The notes under the pieces were generated by a model. The model ran no database searches and was not told where the DNA came from. It worked only from the letters and a program-made list of their open reading frames with translations. The translations under genes and the position numbers were made by a program. A stretch of DNA of 64,000 nucleotides from Candidatus Latescibacterota bacterium (GTDB taxonomy: Bacteria; Latescibacterota; CBDEFO01), in assembly GCA_965237525.1 (NCBI GenBank), contig CBDEFO010000007.1, positions 52,796 to 116,795 of the forward strand. The letters run 5' to 3'. The first letter of the stretch is position 1, and each line of letters starts with the position of its first letter. This document shows, piece after piece, positions 5,895-62,046 of this stretch.

Positions 5895-6400
5895 GTAAGT
5901 AGACAGTAGCCCCCGATTGAGTTTCTCGGGGGTGGGCAGTAGACAGGGCAAAACCAAGTAGACAGCAAACAGCAAACAGTAGACAGGGAAGGCACTGCCA
6001 CGTCCCACCCCATCCAAGTGCTTGTCCCCCTTACCAAGGGGGACCACAGGGGGTCCCAGTAGACGGGGCACAGCCTCTCATCCCTGTATGCTGTCTTAAT
6101 AGAATCAGGGTAGAAGGGAAGCCCGGTGTTATCCAAAGCGCCGGGCTTTTTGTTTGCCCGCAACTGGACAGGACAGACAAGAATGTCCGTCCTACCAACA
6201 TATTAACTCTTGTGGGTCACACATTCCTGTCTGACACCGTTGAGGTCGATAGAATCAGAGATTGCTTCCCCCGGATAGATTCAATCGCAGGCGCTCGCAA
6301 TGACGGTGTAGGGGGCTCGCATGAAAGCTATCGGCTTGAAATATGACATTGTCCACGCTGGGGTCATTGCGAGGGGGATGAAATCCCCCGAAGCAATCTC
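5895..6400. repeat. Cluster of mixed short repeats (AGTAGAC heptamers, REP-like hairpins, GTCATTGCGAG/GAAGCAATCTC palindromic element)
   Basis: AGTAGAC/AGCAAAC units 5899-6065; CCCCCTTACCAAGGGGG ~6026-6043; GGACAGACAAGAATGTCCGTCCTAC ~6171-6195; GAGATTGCTTC...CTCGCAATGAC 6258-6304 and GTCATTGCGAG...GAAGCAATCTC 6363-6400. Confidence 0.75.
6119..6155 (+). terminator. Rho-independent terminator after groEL
   Basis: AAGCCCGGTG...CGCCGGGCTT stem followed by TTTGTTT. Confidence 0.7.
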
Positions 6401-6454
6401 GCTCTATTTTGTACGAGAAATACAACCTTCCCGAATCACAAGTTAAAACTCTTG

Positions 6455-6483
6455 TTGACATTTACACTAAAGTTTTATATATT
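6455..6483 (+). promoter_or_regulatory. Sigma70-type promoter (probable native prfB promoter)
   Basis: TTGACA-17 bp-TATATT. Confidence 0.65.
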
Positions 6484-6607
6484 CACTGCAAATTTGTGCC
6501 TTTAGCGAGTCCCGACTTCTTATGAGCTATGGACAGGAGGATCACAAAAATACTTATTAAGATGTGACCCCTGTCACAAGCAAGATAAAGTTGATTTGGT
6601 ATATTAA

Positions 6608-8126
6608 AAGCCTTGTGAAAAACCCTTAGATTCAGAAAGTAGTATAGAACAAGCATTGATAAAGCAGTTCCGATGTATTATATTATGTTATTGATAATAT
6701 TATACATGGAGGAAACAATGACCCCACAAAAGCAGGAACAGACAAATCCGATGTTTCACTATTTTCAGATGGAGGATTTAGTTCCCGAGGATCATATCCT
6801 TCGTCAGATTGATGAGGCAGTTGATTTTTCATTTGTACGAGACGTTGTATCAGATTGTTATTGCCCTGACAATGGCAGACCCGGTATTGATCCTGAATTA
6901 GTTGTTCGAATGATCCTTATTGGCTATCTGTATAATTTGAGTGAGAATCGGCTCTGTCAGGAAGTGGGGATGCATGCGGCATATCGGTTGTTTTGTCATC
7001 AGACATTTGATGATGCGGTTCCGGATAGGAGCACGATCAACAAGCTTCGCAATCACAAGTGGGCATCCAGTGGGTTGTTTGAACGGATAATGCGTCAGGT
7101 AGTCCAGTGTTGCATAGATGTCGGTGTTGTGAGCGGTAAACACCTTAGTGTCGACGGCACTCAGATACAAGCTGATGCTTCAGTGAAAAGTATTGAGCCG
7201 ATAGAACCCCCTTTTTCTCTTGATGATTATCTCAAGGGAATCGGTTTTGAAGGTGATAAGACAAAGGGTAGGTCCGGGCATCCTCAGGATAAAGACTTTC
7301 ATGGTGAAAAGTGGACGAACCAAACACACCGTTCGACTACAGACCCCGACGCGCGCTTATACAGCAAATCGAAGGGCAAAGGGGCTTTTCTCTCGTTTAT
7401 GGGCCATGATCTGATCGACACAAAAAGCAGAGTAATCCTTGAGACTCAGGGCACGCAGGCGACAGGGACAGCAGAGCCCGAAAGTGCCCTTAAGATGGTA
7501 GATGACCTTGAAACATAGACCATGCCCAAAGACATTCAGACACTTAGTGCCGATACCGGTTACGGTTCTGGTAATTTTATCGCTGATGTACTTGACCGGG
7601 GAATCATACCCCATATTCCTCTGCGAGCCGATGAGAAGATTGAACCGATTCCTACATGGAAAAACAAGACAAATTCAGCACATATTCAGGCCGAACGGGA
7701 TAGAAAAGTGCGAGAGGCGAAAGCCAGAAATCATGCACGGTCTATCTCATTAACAGCTGACTACAAACTCTCCCGGAGACTCCGTAAACGCAGTGAACAT
7801 ATCTTTGCTGAAGCCAGGCAACAACACGGTATGGGACGAGCCCGTTATAGAGGACCAGCCTCACTGAATGAACAGTTGAATCTTGTTGCAACAGTACAGA
7901 ATCTCAAGAGGCTTGCATCTTTCATAAGAAGGGGGAAAGCGTCTATGTGTGCCCTGTCTGTCAAAGACAGTGCATCCTGTTCTTCAAACAGCTCCTGTTC
8001 CTTGCTGACCAGAACTCTGATAAGACTATTTTACTTATTCCACAGCAAAACGATACGATATGCTACTCTTTGACCCATAATCGGCGCTTCAGACGCTGCC
8101 TGGGACATAACTATTTCACAAGGCTT
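6608..8126 (+). mobile_element. IS1182-family insertion sequence
   Basis: Terminal IRs AAGCCTTGTGAAA / TTTCACAAGGCTT, flanked by TTAA on both sides (6604-6607, 8127-8130); encodes an IS1182-type transposase. Confidence 0.85.
6718..8073 (+). pseudogene. IS1182-family transposase with in-frame TAG
   Basis: VPEDH, GRPGIDP, PDRST, VDGT, STTDPDA, ADTGY, SEHIFAEA; TAG at 7516-7518, then the same frame continues (ACC ATG CCC). Confidence 0.85.
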
Positions 8127-8148
8127 TTAAGTTGTGCTAATTTCCTAA

Positions 8149-9794
8149 CCCGAATAATTAACGAGAAAAGGCAGGGCATTAATTAAGGGATTGAATTGTA
8201 TTATAGTTAGGTAGTATAATTACAAAAACAATCCCGAAAATTAAAGAGGCACTGCCATGAATGAAGATATACAAGTTTCGCTTAAGTTGAAAGACGTTTC
8301 TGGCAAGAAAGTGACTGTAGATTTCACCGGTGGAGATGTGACATCCGATGCTGGAGTCCTTGCTTTGAAAGAAGTTGCAAAGAAAATTGGGATCATAGAA
8401 CACCTTGCAGAGGCTATAGGTGATGATCGTCATCAAAGCTATGTACAGCATCATATCGGGGAACTCCTGAATCAACGTATTTTTCAGATTATATGTGGTT
8501 ATGAAGATACTAACGATTCAGATTATCTGAGGGCCGATCCTGGGTTCAAGGTCTCCTGCGACAGGCTCCCCTCTGAGGCCCATTTGGCAAGTCAGCCCAC
8601 TATGAGTCGTTTTGAAAACTCCATCTGCTCCAAAGACCTCTACAAAATAGAAGAGGTATTCGTAGATCGGTTCATAGATTCATATGAAAAACCACCAAAG
8701 GGTATCATTCTGGATATTGATGATACTGATGATATTACCCACGGCGCCCAACAGTTGCAATTGTTCAATGCTTACCACAATGACTACTGCTTTATGCCCC
8801 TTTTTATCTTTGAGGGGAAAAGCGGTAAACTTATAACGAGCATCTTACGTCCTGGCAGACGACCTTGTGGCAGAGAAATTCGTGCGATAATCAAAAGATC
8901 ATCAAAAGAATAAGAGCCGCCTGGCCCAAAGTGGGCATCATCATTCGTGGTGATTGTCACTTTGCTTCTTGTGAACTCTACCTGTGGTGCGAAAGCCATA
9001 ATGTCCATTATCTCGTGGGTCTTTCAAAGAACGCCGTACTTAAAGTATACCCTGAATCTGCTCTGAAGACAGCACATCAGAGATATTCTGATTCTGGCAA
9101 GAAGGTACGTGTTTTCAAAGAAGTAGGCTATCAGGCTAGGAGCTGGCACAAACCAAGAAGAGTGATAATAATGGCCGAAGTCTCTGATATGGGCGAGAAT
9201 CTCCGCTTTGTGGTCACCAGTCTGGAAAGCTCCCAACCATCGTTCCTCTATGAAACGGCCTACTGTGGCCGAGGACAGATGGAGAACTTTATCAAGGAGC
9301 ACAAAGTCGCTCTCAAAAGTGGCCGTACATCGTGCCACAGCTTCCTGGCAAACAGTCTTCGCCTTATGCTTCACAGCGCCGCCTATGTTATTCTGCATAG
9401 GTTCACAGAGAAAGCTCTTGCTGGCACCTCCTTTGCCAATGCTCAATTCGATACCATAAGGCTGCGATTACTCAAGATCGGGGCGGAAGTTCGGGAGCTA
9501 AAGACTAAAGTGCATTTCATATTGCCCTCTTCCTACCCATTGAAAGATGTCTTTGCAACGATGTGCAATAAAATAGCTTTCATAACATAGAGTAAGACTT
9601 ATCTGATTTAATTACATAGAGATACTCTTTCACGCAAGGAATAAGCATGTCCTTTTCGGCACTATACGCCAAATCTGATCAGTATTCCAAAGATGCTTTG
9701 CCACTTGCTGTCGCCTTGCACCGCTCAAATATCCAGTTACCCTTTATTCTGAGGTCAAATTCATTTTTTAAACGAAGTTTATGAATTAATCGGG
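8149..9794 (+). mobile_element. IS1380-family insertion sequence
   Basis: Imperfect IRs CCCGAATAATT / AATTAATCGGG; 4-bp direct repeat CTAA at 8145-8148 and 9795-9798. Confidence 0.85.
8257..9590 (+). pseudogene. IS1380-family transposase, frameshifted
   Basis: FTGGDVTSDAG, GYEDTND, LASQPTMSRFEN, LDIDDT, RGDCHF, RGQMENFIKE; split at an A-run near 8893 (ORFs 8257-8913 and 8865-9590). Confidence 0.85.
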
Positions 9795-9816
9795 CTAAAG
9801 ACCGTAAGGAGGCAAA

Positions 9817-10903
9817 ATGGGAGACGAACTGCTGGAAAGTAAACTCGGAGAATGCAGGAAGAAACTGGACAATCTAAGGAGTTATCTTTGACTTAGGTTC
9901 TAAGGAGGAGGAAATATCCCGGTTAGAATCCAAAATGTCAGAGCCGAACTTCTGGAACGACAGAGAGGCAGCTCGAAAGACGATAGACCGCTTCAACGTC
10001 CTTAAGAAGCCCGTTTTGAAGTGGCGGACCTTAAACTCTGAGTACGAAGATCTGGAGGTGCTCTATCAGCTTGATGTTGAAAAGCACGAAGTGGAGGCGG
10101 AACTCGGTAAATTAGAAGATGGCATAGAGGAGTTAGAGCTCCAAAGGATGCTGGGCGGTCAGGACGACCCAAGGGACGCCATACTTACGATCCATCCTGG
10201 CGCGGGAGGGACCGAATCTTCCGACTGGGCCAATATGCTGATGAGGATGTACCTCAAATGGATTGAGAATCACGGCTTTAAAAGCAGCATTTTAGATATT
10301 CAGCCCGGGGACGAGGCAGGCATCAGAAACGCCACTATCGAAGTTAAAGGGGAACACGCCTACGGCTATCTCAAGGCCGAAGCGGGCGTGCATCGGCTCG
10401 TAAGGATTTCTCCCTTCGACGCCAACAGCAGGAGACATACATCTTTTGCCTCCGTCTTTGTCTATCCCGAAGCCGACAGCGAAATCGAGGTAGACATAAA
10501 CGACAAAGATCTTAAGATAGAGACCTTTCGCTCAAGCGGAGCAGGGGGCCAGCACGTCAACAAGACTGACTCTGCAATTAGGATAACTCATCTTCCGACT
10601 GGCATTACAGTTCAGTGTCAGGCGGAAAGGTCTCAGCACAGGAACAAAAGCACGGCGATGAAGGTACTTATGTCGAGGCTCTATCAGCACTATAAGGAGG
10701 AGGAAAAAAAGAAGATGGAGAAGATAGAAAGCCAAAAAAAGAGCATAGAGTGGGGAAGTCAGATAAGATCTTACGTTTTCCATCCCTACAATATGGTCAA
10801 GGATCACCGAACAGGGGTCGAGACGAGCAATACTCAATCTGTCATGGACGGAGAAATAGACGAGTTTATAAGGGAATATCTTATTCAGTACCCAAATGAG
10901 TAA
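9817..10903 (+). CDS. prfB: Peptide chain release factor 2 with programmed +1 frameshift
   Basis: ATG 9817, 24 codons to CTT-TGA-C (9886-9892) preceded by internal SD AGGAG; SPF and GGQ motifs in the downstream frame. Confidence 0.97.
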
Positions 10904-10949
10904 ACTGGTACTCCATACCTTTCACAATATAGATTTTCTAAACGAATCC

Positions 10950-10978
10950 TTGACTTTGTGTCAAGGTTTTCTTATATT
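10950..10978 (+). promoter_or_regulatory. Sigma70-type promoter for lysS
   Basis: TTGACT-17 bp-TATATT; -35 overlaps palindrome CCTTGAC-N5-GTCAAGG. Confidence 0.5.
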
Positions 10979-11083
10979 TTATGGGCTTTAAGAGTCCCTA
11001 GTACTTGCACCATTCTGATCCGTCCGCATGGGGGTATCGAAGAACTTTTGGGCGCAAAACGAAGATTTTGACAGGAGACTGGA

Positions 11084-12580: not shown

Positions 12581-12596
12581 ACAAGTAGACAGTAGC

Positions 12597-13900: not shown

Positions 13901-13974
13901 AGTAGTCAGTAAACAGGGAAAGGCAAAGACAGTAGGGGTGAGGTTACCTCGCCCAGTAGACAAGAGCACCTCAT

Positions 13975-14364: not shown

Positions 14365-14441
14365 CGCCTTTTTAAACCCTTGAACGAATATGAGTATCGG
14401 GTTGAAATAGTAGATGGCATACAGGGATGGGAGGCGGTGCC

Positions 14442-14469: not shown

Positions 14470-14478
14470 CTTACTTAG

Positions 14479-27792: not shown

Positions 27793-28875
27793 ATGCAAAT
27801 GAGATTAGACCAAATCGTCAGCCTGGTCGGGGGAGAGATCCTGGGAGATGGCGGCACACTAATATCGGGAGTCGCGGGCATAGATGACGCCGAACAAGGC
27901 GATATTACCTTCCTTTCCAATCCCCAATATCGCCGTTATCTCAAATCCACAAAGGCCTCTGCCTTGATCCTCCCGTCCACATCTTCTTCCCCGATTGAAT
28001 CTATCGGGGATAGCCCCCATAAAGATGAAGATTCCATTTCTATCCCCGTTATCCTTTCTGAAAACCCCTATTACTGCTTCGCCCAGGTTATGCGACTCTT
28101 CCACACACAGGAGGATGAATATCCCAAGGAGATACACCTCACTGCTCAAGTGGCCAAGACCGCCCAGATCGGCGCTGGTATATATATAGGTCCTCACGTC
28201 TGTGTGGAAGAGGGAGCAAAGATCGAAGATGGAGTTAGAATCTGTGCAAATTCCATCATAGGAAAAAACTGCAAAATAGGCCAGGGGACTCTGATATATC
28301 CAAACGTGACGATCTACAAGGAAATACAGATCGGAAAGGACGTGATAATACACTCCGGAGCTGTTATAGGGAGCGACGGTTTCGGGTTTGCCCCGGATAA
28401 TGGCAAATATCACAAGGTCCCGCAGGTAGGTACTGTGATCATCGAAGATGACGCTGAGATAGGAGCTAATACCACGATAGATCGTGCAACAATGGGCGTT
28501 ACACGGATAGGAAAAGGAACCAAGATCGACAACCTGGTTCAGATAGCCCACAATGTGGAGATAGCTGCGGACACCGTTATTGCCGCCCAGGCAGGGGTTT
28601 CTGGGAGTACAAAGATCGGGAGAAAGTGCCAGATTGGTGGCCAAGTTGGCTTCGTAGGTCATATTGAATTGGGAGACGAATCGATAGTAGGTGCGCAATC
28701 GGGAATAGCCAAATCGTTCCCCGAAAAGTCGTTCATAACAGGAAGTCCCGCAAGATCAATAGAAATAGTCAGAAAGACAGAGGCCTATCAGAGCAAGATC
28801 CCCGACCTTTTAAAGAGAGTCAAGCAGTTGGAAAAACAGATGGAAGAACTCAAAGAGGAGTTGAGGGACGGATAA
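27793..28875 (+). CDS. lpxD: UDP-3-O-acylglucosamine N-acyltransferase
   Basis: [27 protein letters not shown], hexapeptide repeats. Confidence 0.95.
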
Positions 28876-28876
28876 G

Positions 28877-36316: not shown

Positions 36317-36681
36317 GAGCCGAAGCCAACCTATAAGCCGAGTTCTGTCTCCAAAGGAGGGCGATCATCTGTCTGGGATGCCGATTCCTCGACACCTCAA
36401 TGCGGTCTACCCAGAGGTCGAACGGGACGGGCAGCCCCTCCCTCTCTATTTGACCTTGCTTCCGATGGGGTTTAGCCTGCCGCTTCTGTCGCCAGAAGCT
36501 CGGTGAGCTCTTACCTCGCCTTTTCACCTTTGCCTGTGCCTAAGAAGGGCCATCGGCTGTGTGTTTTCTGTGCCACTTTCCATCGGGTTACCCCGCCTGG
36601 GAGTTACCCAGCATCGTGCCCTTTGAAGCTCGGACTTTCCTCACTTTTAAAAAAGCGCGATCGCCCGGTTTGCTTCGACTC
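36317..36681 (-). ncRNA. rnpB: RNase P RNA (type A)
   Basis: Minus strand has GAGGAAAGTCCGAGCT and ACAGAACTCGGCTTA; closing stem GAGTCGAAGC/GCTTCGGCTC. Confidence 0.95.
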
Positions 36682-38088: not shown

Positions 38089-38165
38089 TGGTGGGCGATA
38101 CTGGACTCGAACCAGTGACCTCTGGTATGTGAAACCAGCGCTCTGACCAGCTGAGCTAACCGCCC
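38089..38165 (-). tRNA. tRNA-Val(CAC)
   Basis: GGGCGGTTAGCTCAG...CTGGT-TTCACAT-ACCAG...GGTTCGAGTCC...CGCCCACCA. Confidence 0.95.
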
Positions 38166-38221: not shown

Positions 38222-38298
38222 TGGTGGGTCCACTAGGACTCGAACCTAGGACCTACTGATTATGAGTCAGTTGCTCTAACCGACTGAGCTATGGACCC
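38222..38298 (-). tRNA. tRNA with CAT anticodon, probably tRNA-Ile2 (lysidine)
   Basis: GGGTCCATAGCTCAG...CTGA-CTCATAA-TCAG...GGACCCACCA; paired G1, lacks the initiator GGG/CCC anticodon stem. Confidence 0.88.
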
Positions 38299-41286: not shown

Positions 41287-41395
41287 TAGGGGCAGACCCG
41301 TGTGTCTGCCCCTGAACATGCGCATAAATCGGGCGAACCACTTCGCGGCTAATTGCCATATCACTCTGTCCACTACCCCATGGCTTCGCCCCTAC
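41287..41395. repeat. REP-like inverted pair
   Basis: TAGGGGCAGACCCGTGTGTCTGCCCC and GGGCGAACCA...TGGCTTCGCCCCTAC; related pieces at ~1381-1398, ~13932-13954, ~30323-30343, ~57552-57582. Confidence 0.7.
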
Positions 41396-41460: not shown

Positions 41461-42930
41461 TCAAAAAAAGAACTCATCACTTGCTTGCCAGCGCGACAGC
41501 ACGATCTTCTGCCGGGTATAAAACATTACCCCTTCCGTGCCCTGGCAGTGCAAATCGCCGTAAAAAGACTGGTCCCAGCCTGAGAATGAAAACAAGGCCA
41601 CGGGAGCAGGGACGCCCAGATTGACGCCGATCATCCCGCATTTTACCCCCATAGCGAACTGCCTTGCTGCGCTCCCGCTGCCCGTAAAGATGGTGGCAGC
41701 GTTGCCATAAGGAATGCGGTTGAACCACTCAATCGCCTCGCCGAGGGAAGAGGGATGCATCATGGACAAAACCGGTCCAAAAATTTCTTCGTAGAAGACC
41801 GGTTGCTCCGGAGTAACCTCGTCGAAGAGAGTAGGACTTACGAAAAAGCCCCTGTCGGGGATGCGATTCCGGCCATCCCCCACTACCCCTATCCCCTGGT
41901 CCGCAGCCCCATCGATGTAGGAGAAGATTCGATCCCGGGCCCCACCATTTATCACCGGCCCCATCTGGGCCTCTGGGTTAGCGACCGTATCCTCCACCTT
42001 AATCTTGTCCATCGCGGCGACAACCTGCTCCAGAAGCGGCTTCCCTGCCTTGCCGACGCCCATTAGTAGCGACCCCGCCATACATCGTTGCCCGGCACAC
42101 CCAAAGGCAGACCCCATTATGGCCTTCACGGTTGGATCCGGATCGGCATCCGGCATGACCAGGAGTACGTTTTTCGCGCCGCCTGCTGACTGCACCCGTT
42201 TGCCATGTTTACAAGCCAGCTCGTAGACGTGCTGCGCAACGGGCGACGAACCTACAAAACTGATGGCGGATATACCCGGATGGGTGCAGATCGCGTCCAC
42301 TACGTCCACACCGCCGTGCACAATATTGAACACACCTTCCGGAAGCCCGGCCTCAATGAAGATTTCCGCCAGCCTGTTGGCCGTCAGGGGCACCTTTTCG
42401 CTGGGCTTGAGAATAAAGGTGTTGCCGCAGGCAATAGCCATTGGAAACATCCACATGGGCACCATGGCGGGGAAGTTAAAGGGCGTTATGCCGGCGCATA
42501 CCCCGATGGGCTCTCGCATAGTCTGTCCATCTATTCCCTCGGCCACCTGGGGCAAATTCTCGCCTTTGGTCAGGTGGGCAATATTGCAGGCGAATTCGAC
42601 TACTTCCAGGCCTCGGCGCATGTCACCCTTGGCTTCTTCAAGGGTCTTCCCGTTTTCCCTGCATATGATCAGGCTGAGTTCAGAAAAGTTCGCTTCTAAC
42701 AGTTCCCGGTAGCGGAACAGAACACGCGCTCTTGAAAGAGCTGGTGTCTTGGCCCAGGAGATAAAGGCTTTGCGGGCTGCCTCTACAGCTATATCTACTT
42801 CCCTGGCCCCGCACATCGGGATCTGGGCGATGACTTCGCCTGTGGAGGGATTGTAGACCTTGTCTAATTGTGTCACTTCAGGTTGGGACCACTTGTCGCC
42901 AACCAGGATAGGTACCACCGGGGGAGCCAT
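41461..42930 (-). CDS. mmsA: CoA-acylating (methyl)malonate-semialdehyde dehydrogenase
   Basis: GITPFNFPAMVP, KPSE, FVGS, GCAGQRCMA, EEIFGP, FYGDLH. Confidence 0.9.
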   Translation of the reverse strand: MAPPVVPILVGDKWSQPEVTQLDKVYNPSTGEVIAQIPMCGAREVDIAVEAARKAFISWAKTPALSRARVLFRYRELLEANFSELSLIICRENGKTLEEAKGDMRRGLEVVEFACNIAHLTKGENLPQVAEGIDGQTMREPIGVCAGITPFNFPAMVPMWMFPMAIACGNTFILKPSEKVPLTANRLAEIFIEAGLPEGVFNIVHGGVDVVDAICTHPGISAISFVGSSPVAQHVYELACKHGKRVQSAGGAKNVLLVMPDADPDPTVKAIMGSAFGCAGQRCMAGSLLMGVGKAGKPLLEQVVAAMDKIKVEDTVANPEAQMGPVINGGARDRIFSYIDGAADQGIGVVGDGRNRIPDRGFFVSPTLFDEVTPEQPVFYEEIFGPVLSMMHPSSLGEAIEWFNRIPYGNAATIFTGSGSAARQFAMGVKCGMIGVNLGVPAPVALFSFSGWDQSFYGDLHCQGTEGVMFYTRQKIVLSRWQASDEFFF

Positions 42931-43074
42931 AGTGTCACCTCCTCTTTTCTATGTTATCAGATAACTAAGCTTGCTCTTTACCCTTTCCCCGATCCCCGAT
43001 TGAATCCCCAATTGTCCCCGAATGAATCTATCGGGGATCAGGGATAAGCCCAAAACAGGCGCTCAAATGAACAA

Positions 43075-45044: not shown

Positions 45045-45803
45045 TTAGCTCTCTACAGCCTCTAGCGCCTTCCTTGCACCTTCTAACGCAAACCTCAAAT
45101 CCGTTCCACCAGTCACCAGCTTAGCCCCTCTTTCAAGCCAGAAGTTAGCGTTATCAGGATCTCCAGAAGCCAGGCCGAAGGCTACGTTATTCTTCTGGCA
45201 CACCGCCAGGACCCTTTCGAACCTCTCTCTGACCTCTTCAACTGCCTCCCACGGGAATTTGCCCAGCGAAAAACTCAAATCGGAAGGCCCGCAGAACGTT
45301 CCGTCGACACCTTCCACGGACAGGATCTCCTCGATGTCGTCCACAGCCTTCTGGTGCTCTATCTGGACGAAGACCCCGACCTCAGCGTTGGCTCTTTTCA
45401 TATATTCGGCGGGATAGGCATAATATCCCGAGGAAAGCCAGGGTCCGCTGCCCCTTATCCCATCGGGCGGATACCTGGTCGCTGCTACTGCCTGACGAGC
45501 CTCCTCGGCGCTGTTTATCATAGGGAAGATAACGTTATAGACTCCGGAGTCCAGAACCTGCTTTACTATCACAAAATCGTTCCACGGAACTCGAACGATC
45601 GCCTCTGTCTCTGACGCTTCAAGGGCTATAATCAAAGAGGGCAGAACTGCCCTATCTATGGATGTGTGCTCCATATCCAGCATCATGAAATCAAAGCCCA
45701 CCTTGGAAAGGGCGTTCACAAGTATAGGATCCGGTATACCTATTTCTATGCCCACTACGGCCTGTCCACCTCTAAATTTTTCTTTGATGCGATTAGTCCT
45801 CAT
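45045..45803 (-). CDS. HpcH/HpaI class II aldolase
   Basis: LDMEH, VRVPWND, YPPDGIRG, QIEH, GPSDLS. Confidence 0.9.
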   Translation of the reverse strand: MRTNRIKEKFRGGQAVVGIEIGIPDPILVNALSKVGFDFMMLDMEHTSIDRAVLPSLIIALEASETEAIVRVPWNDFVIVKQVLDSGVYNVIFPMINSAEEARQAVAATRYPPDGIRGSGPWLSSGYYAYPAEYMKRANAEVGVFVQIEHQKAVDDIEEILSVEGVDGTFCGPSDLSFSLGKFPWEAVEEVRERFERVLAVCQKNNVAFGLASGDPDNANFWLERGAKLVTGGTDLRFALEGARKALEAVES

Positions 45804-46023
45804 ACTTGTTGTCCTCCGCTCTGAGCGCCTCCGCTTATTATGTCCCACATTCTCTACGTGGGGTTCGACATCTAAAAGGCTGACCTGGATCAATCCTACG
45901 CTCATGAAATAAGATAACGCCGGAGATAAGTCAATGTCAACCCCCAATTGAATCCCCGATTGAATCTATCGGGGGTAAATATACGAGAATAAGTCCATCC
46001 TCCGGAAAGAATACCACTGACGT

Positions 46024-48439: not shown

Positions 48440-48587
48440 TATCCTCTCCTTTGTCTGTGATGCTTCGTCCCCGATTGAACCCCCGATTGACTCTATCGGG
48501 GGTCGGGGATATACCGAAGCACTTATCCTTGGCTTCTTACAGTGTAAGGTCACCGAAACTGAATGTTGCCTACCAGATTATGGTTTC

Positions 48588-51904: not shown

Positions 51905-53521
51905 CTATCTCTGTCGTGAATCCTGCCACCATTCGTCCCGGCGCGGCGCGTGCCGATGATGGCGGTACTCCACTACGAGTTCCACATCGTGCAGCAAGAC
52001 GGGTGGTACACACCGCGGGTCGTGGCTCTTCAGGTCGACCCGGATGGTATTATCGCCTAATGACGGCAGCGGCCCCAATCTCAGCAGATCAACGGTTATC
52101 CAGTAGGTATCAATGAGCCGGGGATTGCCGGGGACGGGCCGTACCGAGTAGGTCCAGTCGAGCCATTCCTGGTGCTGGCGAGGGATCTGCTCGCCATTCA
52201 GCCATAAATCAAAGGTGTCGCTGTGTATCAGCGAGAGGATGCGGATCCGCAGCTCGCACCTGGACAGCTCGCCCAGTTCCTTCTTTGCAGACAGATCATC
52301 GCTGACATAGAGAGTCTGCGGCGCACCCTGTTCTCCTACCTTCAGTTCGACGGGAAGCCGATTGGGTGATAAATAGTCTCCGGGCGTATCCTCAGGCCCA
52401 TTTGGACCCTGTCGCACAGCAAAATGCTTGTCCTTATGGGCCAGTAGTTCGGGATGCCCCATGTAGCGGATGGTCTCGAAGTCCGCATCTGAATAGGGAT
52501 AGCCGGATGGATAGTAAGTAGAAAAGAAGGCACCATGGGCGCCCTCCCGATAGGCATTGCTTGCCTGGGCTACTTGCATTTCACGTGTGGCATTTTGAAA
52601 GGCATCGTGGCGGATAATGTTGGAAATACCCTTTATGATCTTGACATCTGTGCCGCGGGCTGCCTCTATCAGTTCAGCGATGCTGGCGGGATGTTGCTCC
52701 ATTAACCCCAGTTTGTGAGGCGGCATCGCCAGCACTGTATCCACGATCCCCTCCCGGATCATCGTCTCCAGATCGATCCCCAGGGCCTTGCTTCCCTCCA
52801 GGCTGGCGGCAGCGAGGACCAAAAGACGCTTCTCCCTGCCCTGTTGTTCAGCCGCCTTGTCGCATAAGCTCCGGACCTCATCAACAAACTGAGTGAAGGT
52901 ATCAGTGTGCTCCTCGACCTCCCGGCGCGCAAGGAAAGGGGCATAATCCAAAATATTCAGCTCAATTCCGTCCGAGTCATAGGCAGATACCAGTTCTTCG
53001 ACCACAGCCAGGCGATTCTGGCGGACTTCGGGGATGGCGTAGGAGAAGCGGCCGGGATCATCCCAGCGGGCTTCTGGAAAATCCGGCTCAGGTCCCACCT
53101 GGTACTCGGGATGCTCAAAGCAGAAATCTGAGCAGCGGCAGTCCGTCACCTCAGCGGGTTCCTGGTGCTGCATCGCCAACAGAAGGCTGGGCATAAAGCT
53201 GAATCCCAGATCGTGGGCCCGCTGGCAGACCACCCTGAGCGGATCGTGCCCATCTGTGATAAACTGCTCCAGATTCAGGCCTGCGCGGTAAAAGATTATT
53301 TGGTTGGTCTTCTTGACATTGTGGCCCCAGCGCTCACCGGCCTTGGTGTCGTAGAGCAGAACCCGGCAGTCCCCCACAGCGTAGGTGATGGTGTCAATCC
53401 CCAGGTCTACCAGTTCATCGATAGGTGCGGTGTAGATACGCTCATCCATCGGCGGTTCGTAGATATAGACCGATGTATGCCTGCCATCGGTGTAGAAGAC
53501 AACCTCCTTTTCGCGGCTCAT
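51905..53521 (-). CDS. Hypothetical protein with glycoside-hydrolase-like (GHL10/DUF187-type) TIM barrel
   Basis: F..EHPEY, YAIPEVRQNRLAVVEELV..YDSDGIEL. Confidence 0.55.
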   Translation of the reverse strand: MSREKEVVFYTDGRHTSVYIYEPPMDERIYTAPIDELVDLGIDTITYAVGDCRVLLYDTKAGERWGHNVKKTNQIIFYRAGLNLEQFITDGHDPLRVVCQRAHDLGFSFMPSLLLAMQHQEPAEVTDCRCSDFCFEHPEYQVGPEPDFPEARWDDPGRFSYAIPEVRQNRLAVVEELVSAYDSDGIELNILDYAPFLARREVEEHTDTFTQFVDEVRSLCDKAAEQQGREKRLLVLAAASLEGSKALGIDLETMIREGIVDTVLAMPPHKLGLMEQHPASIAELIEAARGTDVKIIKGISNIIRHDAFQNATREMQVAQASNAYREGAHGAFFSTYYPSGYPYSDADFETIRYMGHPELLAHKDKHFAVRQGPNGPEDTPGDYLSPNRLPVELKVGEQGAPQTLYVSDDLSAKKELGELSRCELRIRILSLIHSDTFDLWLNGEQIPRQHQEWLDWTYSVRPVPGNPRLIDTYWITVDLLRLGPLPSLGDNTIRVDLKSHDPRCVPPVLLHDVELVVEYRHHRHAPRRDEWWQDSRQR

Positions 53522-53536
53522 AGTCCTCTCCCTCCT

Positions 53537-54610: not shown

Positions 54611-54747
54611 TACATTCTCCCTCCTTTAGTCCTTAAATGACCAGTTCCGATACGTCAAGTCAATATCCGAGGCCAACTTCAGATGGCGCTCTATCTTGTG
54701 TCTCTCCCGTACCGGTCTCGTAACGGGGAAATCAGGACATAAAAAGC

Positions 54748-55839: not shown

Positions 55840-56268
55840 AAGGCTCCTCCTTTGGCCATATCAGACGCATTGTGTCCTCTACAGCGGAAAACTCCACCTA
55901 ATTCCAACGCTACTGTAGTGGATCGACCGGCTGCCAGTTGGCTCTTGCCCTCTGACGGGATACCCCTTACGATGACAACCGAGCTGAGCACTTCCGGATG
56001 CTCGAAACTACTCGGGTTAAACTGAAGGGAGCGCTGGATTTCGTCCATTTTACCTGATCGACTTCTGGGCACTGGAGAGGGTTTTTGAACCGCATAATAT
56101 TTACGCACCGATTCAAGACGCAAATGTTGTTTCTCCTTTGCAATCCCAAAATTATTCATCTGCAGATACGAATTTAGGTAAAGTGAGTGATTTACAACGG
56201 TGTTTAAACGCAAGATACACACAGCCGGAATAACAGGGTTAAGTGATATGTAACGTCCACCAGGATAC

Positions 56269-57171
56269 TCATGCCACTTCAAAATCCAGGGCATCGAGGG
56301 ACCGGCGCAGTTGGGACTCTCCATCAGGTGAGAGCGGTGGGAAATTGCGGGGTGGACCCACCGGGGTACCGCGCCATCCAAGCATGGCCTTGATAGCGGC
56401 CATTGCGCCTGCTTCAAAGATCGGGGCAATGACCCTATTGGCCCGGGTCTGGGCCATCATGGCCTGGCGGATGTCACCGGCCTCGAAGCTCTTGCGCATC
56501 TGGACGAAGAGGCGCGGCATGATGTTATAGGTCGTGCCGATGGCTCCATCGCTGCCCATGACCATAGCGGCCAGACACATCTGGTCCGGTCCGGAGATGG
56601 CGTTGATCCGACCTTCCGAAAGGTCCACCAACTGCTGAAATAGGTACAAGTCATTATCGGTGAACTTGATCCCCGTGAAGTTGGGCACGGAATTCATAGC
56701 CTCTAGGAACTGCGGGACCGTAACGGAACTGTCCGCGTTGCGGGCTAGCCAGTAGACATAGAAGGGCAGATCGGCGGCCGCGCCAATAGCACTGTAGTGC
56801 TCGACTGCTGCCGGCAGATCGTTGGGCCTGTCGATGGGGGCCACGGAGGCGACAGCATCCGCTCCGATCTCAGCCGCGTGCTTCGCAAGTTCCACGGCGT
56901 TCTCCGTACTGGTCGCCCCTACCTGGAGGATAATCGGCACATCTCCGGCTACCTCCCTGACCACGACTTCGGCCATCTGCTTCCGCTCTCCCACGCTCAT
57001 GGCCGCGCCCTCACCCGTACTGCCGCAGACGAAGAAGCCACTGGAGCCTGCGTCCAGCAGCGCGCGCAGCAGAGGAGGAACTCGCTCTAGGGCCAGCTCT
57101 TGTCCACTGTCATCAAAGGGGGTACAGAGTGCCGGAAGTATTCCGCAAGCCAGTTTGGGTGTAGCGCACAT
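56269..57171 (-). CDS. Dihydrodipicolinate synthase/N-acetylneuraminate lyase family aldolase
   Basis: TPF, CGSTGE, GIKFT, DGAIGTTYN; ATG at 57171. Confidence 0.88.
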   Translation of the reverse strand: MCATPKLACGILPALCTPFDDSGQELALERVPPLLRALLDAGSSGFFVCGSTGEGAAMSVGERKQMAEVVVREVAGDVPIILQVGATSTENAVELAKHAAEIGADAVASVAPIDRPNDLPAAVEHYSAIGAAADLPFYVYWLARNADSSVTVPQFLEAMNSVPNFTGIKFTDNDLYLFQQLVDLSEGRINAISGPDQMCLAAMVMGSDGAIGTTYNIMPRLFVQMRKSFEAGDIRQAMMAQTRANRVIAPIFEAGAMAAIKAMLGWRGTPVGPPRNFPPLSPDGESQLRRSLDALDFEVA

Positions 57172-57666
57172 TAGTTTCCTTCCTTTCTCATTCCCGTACC
57201 TGACGGGCGTAGGCGATCCCCGCCCCCCGATAGAGTCAATCGGGGATGAACTCGACTCTCGAACCCGGTATCGGATCAAGGCTAAGGTAATTGCAGCTGA
57301 GCCGCTGTGATATTTGGGACACTTTCGATCGTTTTACTGGAGCATCGTTGCAAATCAAAATAGAATCCATACACTGTCCCGTACTTCAACTGTTAGGCAA
57401 GAGGATGACGGGTATAAGGTACTTTATCTGTGTGGGGCATGTCAACAGGAAAATAGCCATGTTGGTCAGAAAATATCAGGATCATTTTGCGACTTGGAAA
57501 GATAGCACTTTTCAAGGATCTATCGCACACGGAACATCTATCGGGGGGGACGCGTGTCTGCCCTGAAAATACGGGCGAACCAGTTCGTGCTTTGCTGCCA
57601 CCACCTCATCCTCCCTGACAAAGCGCCCACGGCGCCTCACCCCAGCGTATACATATGTTGGGGTAA

Positions 57667-58121
57667 ATGGATCTTTCCATTTTTTGCACTGATAGCGCAT
57701 GTCTGTATCTATACTTAATTTACCGTGCTAAGGGACTTATCGAAGTGCCCGATATCCAGCAGGATCTGAATGAGGCCCCCCCTCGATGTGAGGGAAAGGG
57801 ATGCGGTCTTGCTTCACACAGGTCACCACAGAAGGATGTACGCCTGCTTTCACCACCGACTGGGCGGGGATATCGGCAGACACATCCCGATGGTTCGCAT
57901 ATAAGAAGATTACTGCCTTTGGAGTAGAATCGCCAGGGCCGGGCATTCCGGGCGTATCCAACGAAGATGTCTATAGAATCTGCGGACAGATGGGTTTTAC
58001 ACACTATGAGAACCTTGTGAATTTTGATAAAGTTCTGGGCGTGGGCAGATTCAGATTTATCGCTTTTCCTCTCAAGATTAGAAGAGGTGCAGGTTCACCT
58101 GTCAGGGCTGTAGCAGTTTAA
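57667..58121 (+). pseudogene. Cyclase (kynurenine formamidase-like) remnant
   Basis: Over shifted frames: VLLHTGH, HYENLVN, FPLKIRRGAGSPVRAVA; N-terminal HxGTHxD part absent. Confidence 0.7.
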
Positions 58122-58137
58122 GATGGATAGAGGGTAT

Positions 58138-59427
58138 CTATCCTTCAGGAGGCCACGGATCCAGTGTCGCCCCTGACGGGCGAGTCCCGGTCGGTCTTAT
58201 GATCTGCTTCTCAGAAGGGCCATAAACCACGTCCAGATGAGGCGTCTCCACTCTGCTGTAGCCCTGATACCTCGAGTTCATCACGGAATCTATCGCCCCC
58301 GTCGTCAAAAGTGTCCTTTCTACCCGATACTGGGGCTTTCCCGTCAAAAACATCTCTTGTATGTTTAAAGACAGATAGCTGAAGTTTCCATGGGGCGGCT
58401 GGTTTTGAATATAAAATTCCGTCGCCAGTACCTCTCCATCAGAGAGCCCGGCAAACGCAAAATCATAGATATAGCCCAAAAGCATCAGTATTGTGGCTTT
58501 GAGGCCATCTCTATATTCGATCATGAAAGCCGCCGGATTTGGACAGTGTTCCCGCATATCCCCCGGGGGTTTGTCAACGATTGCAGAAGAGGCGGCCTCC
58601 TCCAGCTTCCGCGACCAGAGACCCTCACTGCGGGCACTCCAGACATCCTCTCCCTCAAGGCACTGAACCGCTGCTATTCCCGTCTCTCCCCCACTTCTAC
58701 GCTCCACCATACACTGAAGGTTCTCAAGGGCGTGAATGCCGTATATCTCAACCCCTGAGTATGAGATTACTAACGATTCCTGTACGGGTGTACCTAACTC
58801 AAATTCCAGTTGAGGATTTCTCCAGGCCAGGGGAACAGACGATCCAGCCATCAGTGGGACATCCAACTCCTGCGCTCTCTCATACATCCATAGGGCGTCA
58901 TCCCAGTTGTAGGATAGATGCTTGTCGTTGAACACAGGCACCGATTTTCCGCTGGAGGCAAAGACTCCGCAGATCTGCTCGAAAAAGTAGCGCCTGGGAA
59001 ACATGTGCTGACCCTTCTCATTGGAAGGATAATCACCGTGCTCTCCGATTAAGAGCACGCCGTCTACTGCCAGCTTATCCCCTCCCAACGTAAGCGCCGC
59101 CCGAATGCTCTGGTAGATAGGGATATTGTGCTCTGCTGCCAGCTTCTGTCCTACATCTTTTTCGTGGATCTGATCCAGATATATCGAGGCCAATTCCACT
59201 TTAGGTTCTTTCAAACCCTCATCGGTTGGGAATCCCTTCATGAACTTGGTGACGATCACATCTGCGTGGGATCCCTGAAAGTAAGTGGTGATGATAGCAG
59301 CTATCTTTTTCTTGTCCATAACGCCTCCTAAAGTATAGTAACTTTTGGCAAAGCTCTCTGCATAACTGACAAGGCCGATGCCGACCGATCCGGCAAGGGT
59401 AGTTTTAAGGAATTCTCTTCTATCCAT
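58138..59427 (-). CDS. Gfo/Idh/MocA-like oxidoreductase-domain protein with Tat-like N-terminus
   Basis: SHADVI, VDGVLLIGEHGDYP, FNDKHL, LMAGSS, YGIHALE; N-terminus DRREFLK. Confidence 0.7.
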   Translation of the reverse strand: MDRREFLKTTLAGSVGIGLVSYAESFAKSYYTLGGVMDKKKIAAIITTYFQGSHADVIVTKFMKGFPTDEGLKEPKVELASIYLDQIHEKDVGQKLAAEHNIPIYQSIRAALTLGGDKLAVDGVLLIGEHGDYPSNEKGQHMFPRRYFFEQICGVFASSGKSVPVFNDKHLSYNWDDALWMYERAQELDVPLMAGSSVPLAWRNPQLEFELGTPVQESLVISYSGVEIYGIHALENLQCMVERRSGGETGIAAVQCLEGEDVWSARSEGLWSRKLEEAASSAIVDKPPGDMREHCPNPAAFMIEYRDGLKATILMLLGYIYDFAFAGLSDGEVLATEFYIQNQPPHGNFSYLSLNIQEMFLTGKPQYRVERTLLTTGAIDSVMNSRYQGYSRVETPHLDVVYGPSEKQIIRPTGTRPSGATLDPWPPEG

Positions 59428-59711
59428 TTTTTTCCTTATCTATTGTCTACCGCCTACTTGCTTTAGTGCACACCCCCTCGCAAGGATTCAGCACAAATTT
59501 AATATATCCGATAAGTTTTGTCAAGATGCCTGTAGTTCAATTCCTGTTGTCCGGTTTCCTTCTGAATATTCTTGAACCCTCCTTCCAGGTTTACCCTGTG
59601 ACGTCTCATCTGATTGGCGCAGAAATAGGAGTAGGGAGTTATGTAGGAACTCTCTTAAGTCAGAGAGTAGTGAATACTTAATTTGCCACATAAGGAATTT
59701 CTCATATTTAC

Positions 59712-59740
59712 TTGACAACTCGGAGCAAGTGGTTTAACAT
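59712..59740 (+). promoter_or_regulatory. Sigma70-type promoter for the TonB receptor
   Basis: TTGACA-17 bp-TAACAT. Confidence 0.55.
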
Positions 59741-59871
59741 ACTGGGGCGCTATGCTGTGGATCAGAGGAACCTGTTCAGGCCCGGCCTCTCAGAGCAGAT
59801 TGAATCACAAGGGGTAAAGAAATGCATCATTTTCAAAGCGGGAGGAAGCTACTATTCGGCTCCTAAGCCTC

Positions 59872-61959
59872 GTGCTCGTTGTTATGTCTGCTTCGGTATA
59901 TCTATACGCTGAAGAGACCCAATCGGTAACCGAAGATCCGGAGGAGGTCATAGTCCTGGAGGAGGTGGTTGTGACTGCCACCCGGACGGATCAGACGCTC
60001 AGAGACATTCCCGCCAACGTGACGATTCTTGACAGGGCGGATATCCAGCGATCGGCGGCTCAGACTCTGGACGATCTCTTGCGGCAGGTACCGGGCTTCA
60101 GTCTCTTTCGACGCTCAAGCAGCGTCGTGGCCCACCCCACCACACAGGGCGTGTCCCTGCGCGGAATCGGGGCCAGCGGATCCAGCCGTACCCTGATTCT
60201 TCTTGATGGAATGCCCTTAAACGATCCGTTTGGGGGCTGGGTGCAGTGGAGCAAGGTCCGGATGGAGAGCGTTGAGCGTATCGAAGTGCTCCGAGGGGGA
60301 GGATCTCATATCTGGGGCAACTACGCCTTGGGCGGAGTCATTCACATCATCACATCGCGACCTCAGAAGAAGACAGTAACGCTCTCCGGCAAGCTAGGAA
60401 ATCGGAAAACCGCGACCTTGGACTTTTCTGCCAGCGATCGCTTTGGATCAACCGGTCTGGCGCTTGAAGGAAGCTATTTCAATACCCGGGGGTATCCGAT
60501 TGTTCGAGCGGATCAGCGGGGACAGATAGACGTTAACGCCGATTCCGAAAACAAGACCGTCAGGGTAAAGCTGACGCAGAATCTCTCGCCGACAGCTAAG
60601 CTGTATCTACAAGGCGGCCTATTCAGTGAAGAACGTGACAACGGTACGCCCCTCACCCACAACAGCACAGACGCGGGATACATCGGGATAAGCACTACAC
60701 TTCAGAGGTCGGATGGAAGCAAGTGGACCCTCACAGGCTTTTCGCACCTCCAGCGGTTCAAGAGTTTTTTCTCGTCCCAGGCCTCCGACCGGAATTCGGA
60801 AGGTCCGGCCCTCGATCAGTTTAATGTCCCTTCGCAGGCAGTAGGGATAACACTGGAGTGGCTCAAGCCGATAAGCGCAGAGCATCTGCTCACGGCAGGA
60901 TCGGACCTTCGATGGCTTTCGGGAGAGACCAACGAGGAGTTCTTCCTCAAGTCCAACCGGTTTGTCCGGCGCCGCAGGGCAGGTGGAGACCAGCAGGTGA
61001 TGGGAATTTACCTCCAGGACATCTTTATCCCCCGGCACCGCTGGCAGATCACGTATGGCAGCAGGGTCGATTTGTGGCGCAGTTTTGATGGTTCTCGCCT
61101 TGAGCGGAATCTGGAGACGGATGAGGTCATACGAGAGGATACATTCGCCGATCGAACCCGCTGGGTCTTCAACCCTAAGGTGGGGCTGCGCTTCGATGCG
61201 ACCGACCGCGTCTCCTTTCGAAGTTCCCTTTATCGGACCTTTCGCGCACCGACGTTGAACGAACTCTTCAGACCCTTTCGGGTCCGAAACGATATTACCG
61301 CGGCCAACGAAAACTTGAATCCGGAGCGACTGCACGGTGGGGAGGTTGGAATCGACTATGTCACCTCCTCCCTGACCGGTCGCCTGACAGGCTACTGGAA
61401 CGAGGTGAAGGGATCTGTCGTCAACCTGACAATCGGAAGCGGACCAGGGCAGGTTGACCCCTGCGGGTTCGTTCCCGACGGTGGTCTCTGCCGTCAGCGG
61501 CACAATCTGGACAGGACACGAATCCGTGGGATCGAAGCAGAGTTGACCTATCACAACCGTTCATTTTGGACTGGGTCTATAAGCTATCTCTTCAACGAAA
61601 GCAGAATCGTGAGCGCACCGGCTCAGCCGGAGCTCGAAGGCAGGCGCCTTCCTCAGGTGCCAGAGCATCATCTAGTCCTGAAAATAAGTTATGCCAACCC
61701 GTCTCTACTGGTCGCCAGCGTTCAGGGACGGTATGTGGGCAATCAATTTGAAGACGATATCAATTCGCTTGAGCTTGGGGATTTCGGCGTGGTAGATCTC
61801 TTCGTGTCGCGACCGATCCAATCGGGAAGGGAGATTTTCTTTCAGGTGGAAAATCTTTTCGATCGATCCTACGCCGTCGGCAAGACAGGCGGTGGTCTGG
61901 TAACGATCGGTGCACCGGTACGTTTCCATGCAGGATTTCGAATGATGATGCCCGACTGA
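59872..61959 (+). CDS. TonB-dependent receptor (possibly damaged at both ends)
   Basis: EEVVVTATR TonB box, plug LDGMPLND/ERIEVLRG/GGVIHI, FRAPTLNEL, VENLFDR. Confidence 0.88.
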   Translation: MLVVMSASVYLYAEETQSVTEDPEEVIVLEEVVVTATRTDQTLRDIPANVTILDRADIQRSAAQTLDDLLRQVPGFSLFRRSSSVVAHPTTQGVSLRGIGASGSSRTLILLDGMPLNDPFGGWVQWSKVRMESVERIEVLRGGGSHIWGNYALGGVIHIITSRPQKKTVTLSGKLGNRKTATLDFSASDRFGSTGLALEGSYFNTRGYPIVRADQRGQIDVNADSENKTVRVKLTQNLSPTAKLYLQGGLFSEERDNGTPLTHNSTDAGYIGISTTLQRSDGSKWTLTGFSHLQRFKSFFSSQASDRNSEGPALDQFNVPSQAVGITLEWLKPISAEHLLTAGSDLRWLSGETNEEFFLKSNRFVRRRRAGGDQQVMGIYLQDIFIPRHRWQITYGSRVDLWRSFDGSRLERNLETDEVIREDTFADRTRWVFNPKVGLRFDATDRVSFRSSLYRTFRAPTLNELFRPFRVRNDITAANENLNPERLHGGEVGIDYVTSSLTGRLTGYWNEVKGSVVNLTIGSGPGQVDPCGFVPDGGLCRQRHNLDRTRIRGIEAELTYHNRSFWTGSISYLFNESRIVSAPAQPELEGRRLPQVPEHHLVLKISYANPSLLVASVQGRYVGNQFEDDINSLELGDFGVVDLFVSRPIQSGREIFFQVENLFDRSYAVGKTGGGLVTIGAPVRFHAGFRMMMPD

Positions 61960-62046
61960 ATCTATCGGGGATGAAGCTGTAGAGAAGTTCTCATAACGTC
62001 TCATGATAAAGGAGGTCAAACTATGATTAAATCAAGGAGCTTCGAA

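Follow-up and report, generated by a model that had tools for sequence, protein, structure and literature searches.

A 23-bp palindromic repeat in a Latescibacterota genome, probably among the smallest mobile DNA elements

The small dispersed repeats SDR4-6 of Nostoc punctiforme and its relatives reportedly occur in one another, inside miniature inverted-repeat transposable elements (MITEs) and in tracts of heptamer repeats, and as far as we could find nobody knows the mechanism by which mobile DNA of about 20 bp, familiar since the description of the small dispersed repeats (SDR) of Nostoc, moves. Here we describe a family of 23-bp palindromes, referred to below as the element, that was noticed in a 64-kb stretch of DNA (the window; positions 52,796 to 116,795 of contig CBDEFO010000007.1, here C7) from the genome of a Candidatus Latescibacterota bacterium (GCA_965237525.1, here G000; 4.58 Mb in 8 contigs, 96.6% complete). 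In its behaviour the element ranks with the smallest mobile DNA elements known, and we consider it probable that it represents a family of gene-less palindromic micro-elements inserted as discrete units by an activity supplied in trans. SDR5 inserts precisely between bases 3 and 4 of HIP1, according to PMC4390886; PMC5861425 states that the cyanobacteria it cites yielded no SDR-like repeats outside the Nostocaceae, and SDR elements are also cited in PMC3116915. Compared by description, the element appears to work like the Nostoc SDR elements: it belongs to the same size class of 21–27 nt (23 nt, with sharp borders and 552 copies), has no coding capacity, forms a hairpin, is present or absent between relatives (62 filled/empty sites) and is inserted precisely at a short specific site. 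It differs in that its host is not a cyanobacterium and has few HIP1 sites (0.01 per kb in G000), in that it replaces 3–4 target bases where SDR make a simple insertion, and in that its core is common to two lineages whose UvrC proteins are about 40% identical; nor is it known to be related to SDR4-6 in sequence. A cyanobacterial origin of the DNA, to which the heptamer repeats and palindromes had pointed, was rejected in view of the scarcity of HIP1.

A search of G000 on both strands with the pattern CCCCGATTGAATCTATCGGGG, allowing up to 3 mismatches, returned 552 sites (117 exact and 196, 151 and 88 with one, two and three mismatches, respectively), of which 270 were on the plus and 282 on the minus strand; they occurred on every contig at a density of 10–28 per 100 kb, and the reversed control pattern gave no matches. 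Alignment of these copies on the motif defined a 23-nt unit, Y-CCCCGAT-TGAnTCT-ATCGGGG-R, with a core of 21 nt in which 20 positions carry 1.4–1.8 bits of information and the central base is variable. Outside the core the information falls to 0.76 bits at the adjoining base on each side and to about zero from three bases out. These adjoining, closing bases covary as a pair (T-A 270, C-G 169, T-G 41 and C-A 29 of 552), and besides them one weak R/Y position carries information. The original prediction, made from the letters of the window, had described an asymmetric loop as conserved, and this was borne out genome-wide: T is found at position 8 in 540 copies and at position 14 in 533, and in the loop only the central base varies. 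The two bases form a T-T mismatch in the hairpin, the duplex being palindromic except for one position, and as a single strand the unit folds into an 8-bp stem and a 7-nt loop at −7.6 to −8.2 kcal/mol. Hairpins of the form CCCCGA-N(3-17)-TCGGGG number 387 in G000, compared with 2–20 for control arms; in 328 of them the 9 nt in the middle read TTGAnTCTA or the complement of this, and the hairpin was also seen 17 times in a short form of 17 nt. Nearly all hairpins with these arms are one family. The TTCATC and GATGAA flanks that had been reported for the window copies did not prove general, since neither word ranks in the top 15 flank hexamers to the left or to the right of the unit. The aligned copies showed no general direct repeat in their flanks and no T run 3′ of the stem, and no Rfam 15 family matched the element at gathering score, the matches in the window being confined to RNase P RNA and two tRNAs.

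The proposal that this is a very small mobile or recombinogenic element is supported by its copy number, by polymorphic sites in a sister genome and by sharply bounded insertion into itself, other repeats and genes. The sole other genome of the genus compared, G001 (a single-contig chromosome, 98% complete, syntenic with the window and 96–97% identical over it), has 462 strand-matches with up to 2 mismatches, and the filled/empty comparison suggested with the original prediction was carried out in both directions between G000 and 1.2 Mb of G001. From 184 G001 sites, 105 were shared, 25 were empty in G000 (10 clean and 15 in diverged surroundings) and 54 had no usable ortholog; the 552 G000 sites comprised 108 that were shared, 37 that were empty in G001 (13 clean and 24 messy) and 407 outside the part compared. 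Altogether the two genomes differ in occupancy at 62 sites, equivalent to 25 of 130 G001 sites and 37 of 145 G000 sites with orthologs, and such filled/empty pairs occur at single-copy loci, coding sequence included. In the 23 clean events the net gain was 19 nt in 8 and 20 nt in 8, with the rest at 12, 12, 18, 21, 25, 26 and 27 nt; where the gain falls below the 23-nt unit, target bases must therefore be missing from the filled allele. When the insert was assumed to be the 23-mer and both flanks were sought in the empty allele, 30 of the 62 events could be parsed, with a loss of four bases in 13, three in 8 and five in 3, a duplication of 2–4 nt in 4, and a complex junction in 2. The 13 lost tetranucleotides were TCGA (three), TAGA (two) and TCTA, TGGA, TCAA, TTGA, TACA, CTCA, CTAG and CAGC (one each), so that 10 of the 13 conform to T-N-N-A, and several 3-nt losses (CGA, four times) read ACGA or TCGA after a one-base shift of the junction. 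A DDE-type MITE differs from this pattern, in which 24 of the 30 parsed events lose 3–5 target bases, 4 duplicate 2–4 and there is no target-site duplication of fixed length, while the halves of the element could count as abutted inverted repeats. A model in which a 19-nt unit is inserted into TC^GA without loss fits the TCGA events but was rejected, as it gives the wrong base for TCTA targets.

Where one copy lies inside another, in G000 the outer copy had lost positions 12–15 (TCTA) in 33 nests and the mirror positions 7–10 (TTGA) in one, with two ambiguous; in the 1.2-Mb part of G001 the corresponding counts were five same-orientation and six inverted nests with TCTA loss against one TTGA loss. 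The inner copy has the same orientation as the outer in 21 of the nests (outer left part of 11 nt, CCCCGATTGAn, and outer right TCGGGG) and is inverted in 12 (outer left CCCCGA and outer right nTCAATCGGGG); the orientation of the incoming copy is free. The TCTA of its own loop is strongly favoured and the element therefore nests into itself, and since TCTA and TTGA, read on opposite strands, differ by one base, the choice between them must depend on sequence or on the T-T asymmetry. Inner copies are closed by C...G in 22 nests and by T...A in 10; because the target in these nests is TCTA, the 22 of 33 with C...G indicate that the closing pair travels with the element, and a model in which the closing bases derive from the target was rejected on the same counts. 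Template switching or local duplication was likewise rejected as the origin of the nests, since inner and outer copies differ in sequence and 12 of the 33 are inverted. At nests that are polymorphic between the two genomes, the outer copy stands intact in the empty allele and has the consensus loop, as insertion predicts, whereas loss would need exact restoration of TCTA. The element is a discrete unit that usually replaces and sometimes duplicates a target tetranucleotide, strongly targets itself and enters in either orientation.

The window itself contains 12 strand-matches with up to 3 mismatches, which correspond to 8 full-length sites; 0.01 matches are expected in the shuffled window and none of 100 shuffles attained 12. 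Copies were present at all nine places originally listed, as eight full copies with extra part-arms and one half copy. These sites, together with one empty target, are as follows (ORF, open reading frame).

5910–5932 (core 5911–5931), plus strand: diverged full copy with 3 mismatches, C-CCCCGATTGAGTTTCTCGGGG-G, 16 nt past the groEL stop and among AGTAGAC heptamer repeats.
6269–6291 (core 6270–6290), minus strand: diverged copy with 3 mismatches, within a foreign palindrome GAGATTGCTT...CTCGCAATGAC of the type of CGTC-tagged repetitive extragenic palindromes (REPs) or NTS repeats.
27988–28010 (core 27989–28009), plus strand: exact copy in frame (SPIESIGD) in lpxD, common to the sister genome G001.
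41289–41312, minus strand: empty target hairpin GGGGCAGAC-ACACGG-GTCTGCCCC, whose loop is filled by the element in G001 with a net gain of 20 nt.
42986–43043, plus strand: nested stack with four left arms (42987–42993, 42994–43005 and 43006–43015 listed), a full copy at 43016–43036 and an extra right arm, ATCAGGG, at 43037–43043.
45941–45975, plus strand: left arm CCCCCAATTGAAT at 45941–45953, then an exact full copy at 45954–45974 followed by G.
48468–48509, plus strand: clean nest with outer T-CCCCGATTGAA at 48468–48479, inner C-CCCCGATTGACTCTATCGGGG-G at 48480–48502 and outer TCGGGG-A at 48503–48509.
57224–57246 (core 57225–57245), minus strand: full copy with 1 mismatch at the 5′ end of a DHDPS-family ORF (56269–57279).
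57535–57549, minus strand: half copy, at which G001 has a complete nested copy and 41 nt between two ATAGAT repeats are missing in G000.
61949–61971 (core 61950–61970), plus strand: full copy with 2 mismatches, overlapping the last codons of a TonB-dependent receptor ORF (59872–61959).

The outer copy of the nest at 48468–48509 (core of the inner match, 48481–48501) lacks exactly its loop TCTA, and the half copy at 57535 is the product of a 41-nt deletion of a nest between ATAGAT repeats, the nest having been kept in G001. A 20-nt insertion at window position 41298, in the empty hairpin, stands in a contig of public run X4 and is absent in run X2. In four public runs, short-read contigs break off at copies or right beside them (42448–42476, 45465–45564, 48481–48538 and 57245), and contig 'joints' between element copies in these runs are assembly repeat artefacts. 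The tract of AGTAGAC(AG) heptamer type just 3′ of groEL (5895–6075) belongs to a class that contains TCTA/TAGA and is a recurrent landing site of the element elsewhere in G000. Other features of the window are an RNase P RNA of class A (299.9 bits, 36318–36676, minus strand) and tRNA genes at 38092–38165 and 38225–38298 (both minus strand), all free of element copies, and a release-factor ORF with PCRF and RF-1 domains (9935–10903) that begins at PCRF profile position 12 and would fit prfB with the usual upstream +1 frameshift site.

Some copies travel passively in a MITE and in palindromes of a second family. Close pairs are in excess, with 11 within 60 nt (3.9 expected) and 30 at 61–150 nt (5.8 expected), and close neighbours mostly have the same orientation, as MITE pairs at 88 nt and nests at 27 nt. 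Ten pairs spaced exactly 88 nt are parts of one family of MITEs of about 300 nt with terminal inverted repeats, of which G000 has about 58 ends, and whose two internal element copies adjoin arms of the second palindrome family, GTCATTGCGAG...AAGCAATC. The latter family, with a trailing TC, has 367 arms in G000 (one site at window 6255–6310), resembles CGTC-tagged REPs and NTS repeats and often hosts the element in or beside its loop; the arrangement at 6269–6291 recurs in MITE copies. Roughly classified, the 552 intact copies lie beside the arm of another copy (170), in the second palindrome family (78), in heptamer tracts of the AGTAGAC/CTGTCTA type (28) or elsewhere (276). Flanks able to form a stem of 6 bp or more were found at 43 of 552 sites (7.8%), against 2.0% of control positions, so that loops of other hairpins are favoured as sites. 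A MITE copy is present in the window at about 9500–9797 (left end 9774–9797, minus strand), with terminal repeats TAACCCGATTAATTCATAAA... and apparently flanked by TA; the terminal repeat CCCGATTAATTCA resembles the element arm in 10 of 13 bases by manual count, and the TA flanks, judged by eye, do not fit the element junctions.

Such observations lend some substance to the view that the element has no dedicated mobility and that its copies are passengers of MITEs, insertion sequences (IS) and duplications, with nests formed by local slippage at the hairpin: the ten 88-nt pairs belong to one MITE family, 78 copies sit in one kind of foreign palindrome, and hairpins are prone to slippage, as at the half copy at 57535. 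We nevertheless regard this as quite improbable, because 287 copies have distinct flanks with similarity that stops within 2 nt of the unit, because filled and empty alleles are found at the single-copy loci described above, and because slippage cannot yield inner and outer copies that differ in sequence and closing pair or that are inverted.

As hairpins in hundreds of copies, the repeats also resemble REP/REPIN systems, in which a RAYT (Y1/HUH) transposase mobilises non-autonomous hairpins in single-stranded form, RAYT being the first of the enzyme families originally put forward. The stem-adjoining T-T mismatch and the tetranucleotide target are reminiscent of IS200/IS605 chemistry. The element shares with REPs a short GC-rich palindrome, a high copy number and a mostly intergenic position (PMC3116915; PMC3733652). 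REPs are defined in PMC3733652 by an unpaired GTAG or CGTC tag at the hairpin end, and some lie inside genes; the element has no such tag. Its copies are single units with no excess of inverted doublets, their close pairs being those in MITEs and nests, and they show no preferred position or orientation downstream of genes and no trend of orientation with GC skew or gene-strand bias along the contigs. A profile search for Y1_Tnp (RAYT/IS200, PF01797) gave no matches in G000 or G001, both of which nevertheless have sites filled in one genome only, while in a control the family was detected in 6 of 14 named genomes. Three other carriers of the element, G031, G033 and G035, are rich in Y1_Tnp (10, 4 and 3 matches), but in G031 the listed Y1 genes and the listed copies on common contigs lie kilobases apart. 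Movement by a RAYT therefore appears quite improbable, and the HUH/RAYT family dropped out as a candidate.

A second enzyme family suggested at the outset, GIY-YIG, would make the element a recognition repeat of an Ssn-type single-strand nuclease, with a role in transformation or genome dynamics and not in self-propagation. The targets of such nucleases are likewise hairpin repeats that number in the hundreds and recur across phyla, and the SRM pattern of Ssn systems is given as HGTCWY...RNCYNB (Chenal et al. 2025, PMC11893778). G000 does encode one small GIY-YIG protein of 107 residues (G000:C4:479836–480159, outside the window), and the element co-occurs with NTS-like hairpins in both lineages. 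The gene has, however, GTCATTCCCG...CGGGAATC hairpins on its flanks, in agreement with the NTS published for Neisseria (enclosing hairpins GTCATTCCCGTGGAAACGGGAATC and GATTCCCGCGAAAACGGGAATGAC), and forms with these hairpins a separate Ssn-nuclease/NTS-like 'gene in a hairpin' module of the kind set out in PMC11893778. The stretch examined around the gene has no element copy within 3 kb. In G001, G031, G033 and G035 the small gene had no counterpart, the sole GIY-YIG match being in a frame of 517–652 residues like the UvrC of G000. The element also falls outside the SRM pattern, which requires a GTC tag, it has no ssn-like gene as a companion, and the sections of PMC11893778 consulted make no mention of repeats that nest in themselves by replacing a tetranucleotide of the loop. 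We therefore consider an Ssn recognition repeat very improbable.

No mobiliser emerged from the genomes searched. A Ku gene is absent in all five carriers searched, and reverse transcriptase genes were not found in G000 and, among the carriers searched, were found in G001 only. In the window no gene could be linked to the element, in agreement with the original statement that it holds no candidate enzyme. Nor does the motif match an IS terminus: neither the two DDE transposase elements of the window nor an abundant IS of the genome has ends related to it, and in the MITE of about 300 nt it is internal. This IS of 1,526 bp, with a DUF772 + DDE_Tnp_1 transposase, occupies window 6604–8131 (G000:C7:59399–60926), where its reading frame is split into ORFs 6673–7518 and 7522–8073, and it has about 150 further copies at 99.2–100% identity that make up about 5% of the genome. 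A gene family consistently flanked by the motif had been suggested as a route to the mobiliser, and none came to light. The 44 ORFs with copies on both sides, in the manner of RAYT or Ssn genes, were judged by eye from their translations, without a family search, and look like ordinary housekeeping genes (among them RF1, PolA, GlmS, LeuC and PheS), apart from one IS transposase, the ends of which bear no relation to the motif; among 568 ORFs adjoining copies the largest paralogue family had 9 members and none stood out. Comparison of G000 with 246 kb of G031 (about 10% of that genome) gave a best gene identity of 69% and no high-identity outlier, a result of little weight at this coverage. A phage or plasmid vector was discarded as a candidate, with 0 exact element matches in viral_contigs, as was an origin from CRISPR repeats: a quick array finder returned only a 66-nt coding array (G000:C8:1071341–1073110), which encodes 22-residue leucine-rich repeats and looks CRISPR-like to a simple finder.

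On a crude gene map of longest ORFs, 322 of the 552 copies are intergenic, 41 lie over an ORF end and 189 lie within an ORF, so that 58% are intergenic compared with 12.8% of random positions (3.1% over an ORF end and 84.1% in an ORF). The spacers concerned, which the original prediction had taken for junctions between unrelated accessory genes, turned out to be ordinary spacers between chromosomal genes (groEL, aldehyde dehydrogenase, sugar-metabolism genes). In spacers between tandem genes, 161 copies point with the genes and 161 against them, and convergent and divergent spacers hold 72 and 57 copies, roughly in line with spacer length. In ORFs of 750 nt or longer, 44 copies are found 150 nt or more from the ends, and they use all four reading frames in which the element has no stop (PRLNLSG 11, SPIESIGD 10, SPIDSIGD 15 and PDRFNRG 8); the copy in lpxD (27989) falls in an insertion of 14 residues that the solved Pseudomonas LpxD (PDB 6uec) lacks. 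As a separate observation, the 25-kb contig C2 (G000:C2:17978–25227) repeats the end of C4 (G000:C4:542441–549707) in inverted form, down to identical motif spacings and the RF1 gene, and represents either a large inverted duplication or an assembly artefact. Palindromic elements of about 100–150 bp are also tolerated in frame in protein-coding genes of Rickettsia, including essential ones (Rickettsia palindromic elements, RPEs). The element resembles the RPEs, which are cited in PMC3733652, as an in-frame palindromic repeat of coding genes and differs from them in being 23 bp long and adding 6–9 residues. Its balanced orientation, its in-frame copies and the lack of an Rfam match argue against an operator, a terminator, an RNA element or an uptake signal, and a fixed transcription-factor operator, an alternative named with the original prediction, is contradicted by the 161:161 orientation together with polymorphic sites, some of them coding. 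That the element is a cis-acting host signal (operator, terminator, mRNA stabiliser or uptake sequence) under selection is scarcely credible, since its enrichment in spacers, a slight deficit in divergent spacers (57 of 451 copies against 21% of spacer length) and the conserved loop are set against balanced orientation to tandem genes, the absence of a T run after the stem, polymorphism between such similar genomes, copies stacked in one another or read in frame in proteins, and the lack of the motif in 166 of the 168 genomes from the phylum. The element would thus seem to have no cis function for the host and to be tolerated in spacers and in surface loops of proteins.

Within the phylum of the host in the GTDB, the element was found in 2 of 168 genomes, those of two species of one genus that is alone in its family, and was absent from the other 166. 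An exact scan of one genome per species returned at least 56 stretches. Besides G001, the matches listed include metagenome-assembled genomes (MAGs) titled Deltaproteobacteria (four), Thermodesulfobacteriota (one) and Nanoarchaeia (one, with a single match). The five Deltaproteobacteria and Thermodesulfobacteriota MAGs have 54, 19, 18, 8 and 10 strand-matches with up to 2 mismatches, a count in which symmetric-loop copies appear twice, and their copies include compensatory stem variants CCCTGAT...ATCAGGG. In 246 kb of G031 there are 14 copies, again with closing pairs T...A or C...G, several of them in loops of other hairpin repeats, including NTS-like ones. The UvrC proteins of G031, G033 and G035 are 73–77% identical to one another and 39–40% identical to that of G000; the letter-identical 21-nt core in such distant hosts argues for horizontal spread together with sequence-specific recognition.

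Several points weigh against regarding the family as actively inserted. The mobiliser was not found in the searches described, so that the word 'mobile' rests on comparative patterns. Two genomes of the genus were compared, so that outside the nests a difference may be either an insertion or a loss; polymorphic copies are no closer to the consensus than others (means of about 1.2 and 1.4 mismatches) and are therefore not visibly younger. With 30 of the 62 events parsed, the T-N-N-A rule outside self-targets depends on few independent events, and the alignment of 3–4 bases is ambiguous. The junctions are not uniform, with lost, duplicated and complex bases, and imprecise repair would account for them as well as a dedicated enzyme would. 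Some of the 552 copies have been carried along passively (the ten MITE pairs and the 78 copies in CGTC-type palindromes). The roughly 150 young copies of the abundant IS contain no new insertion of the element, which fits a low rate of insertion and equally an activity that has ceased; one older IS copy, 92% identical, does carry the element (C7:385657). The gene map is also crude, and some 'coding' copies probably lie in spurious ORFs or false 5′ extensions.

If the element is inserted by an activity supplied in trans, the junctions suggest how this might proceed. A cut staggered over about 4 nt would open the target at TCNA, and the symmetrical 23-bp unit, with equivalent ends, would be joined into the cut; end processing would then decide between loss and duplication of the four bases, loss being usual and duplication occasional. 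The activity may recognise the element itself, which would explain the letter-identical core in unrelated bacteria. In a single-strand variant, a hairpin oligonucleotide would be ligated into a gapped loop, and either donor strand would have to be usable. The activity appears to be neither a Y1/HUH (RAYT) transposase nor Ku-dependent end joining, and a reverse transcriptase is unlikely. A more specific proposal, which we put forward tentatively as possible rather than likely, is that an undescribed cut-and-join activity, one that crosses phyla and is not HUH, probably not a reverse transcriptase and independent of Ku, has the 23-bp palindrome as its whole substrate; this activity would recognise the element, make a 4-nt staggered cut in TCNA, preferably at TCTA in the element's own loop, paste a copy in either orientation and discard four bases.

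The family extends SDR-like elements beyond the cyanobacteria, with an identical core in lineages as distant as their UvrC proteins indicate. New here are the junction rule, by which 3–4 bases are replaced, the 33:1 choice of loop site, the free orientation and the exclusion of Y1, Ku, Ssn and (in G000) reverse transcriptase as partners. Any mechanism is constrained by a symmetrical 23-bp unit, by T-N-N-A replacement, by a 33:1 choice between near-mirror sites and by use of either orientation; a further constraint is that no Y1/HUH or Ku gene, and in G000 no reverse transcriptase gene, was found. In practical terms, the copies break short-read assemblies and create false 'variable' sites in comparisons of strains. 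They also add loops of 6–14 residues to proteins, including the essential LpxD. Were the cut-and-join proposal true, the element would be among the smallest transposition substrates known, with a chemistry that replaces its target and does not duplicate it, and it would offer a route to the mobiliser of SDR-like elements generally.

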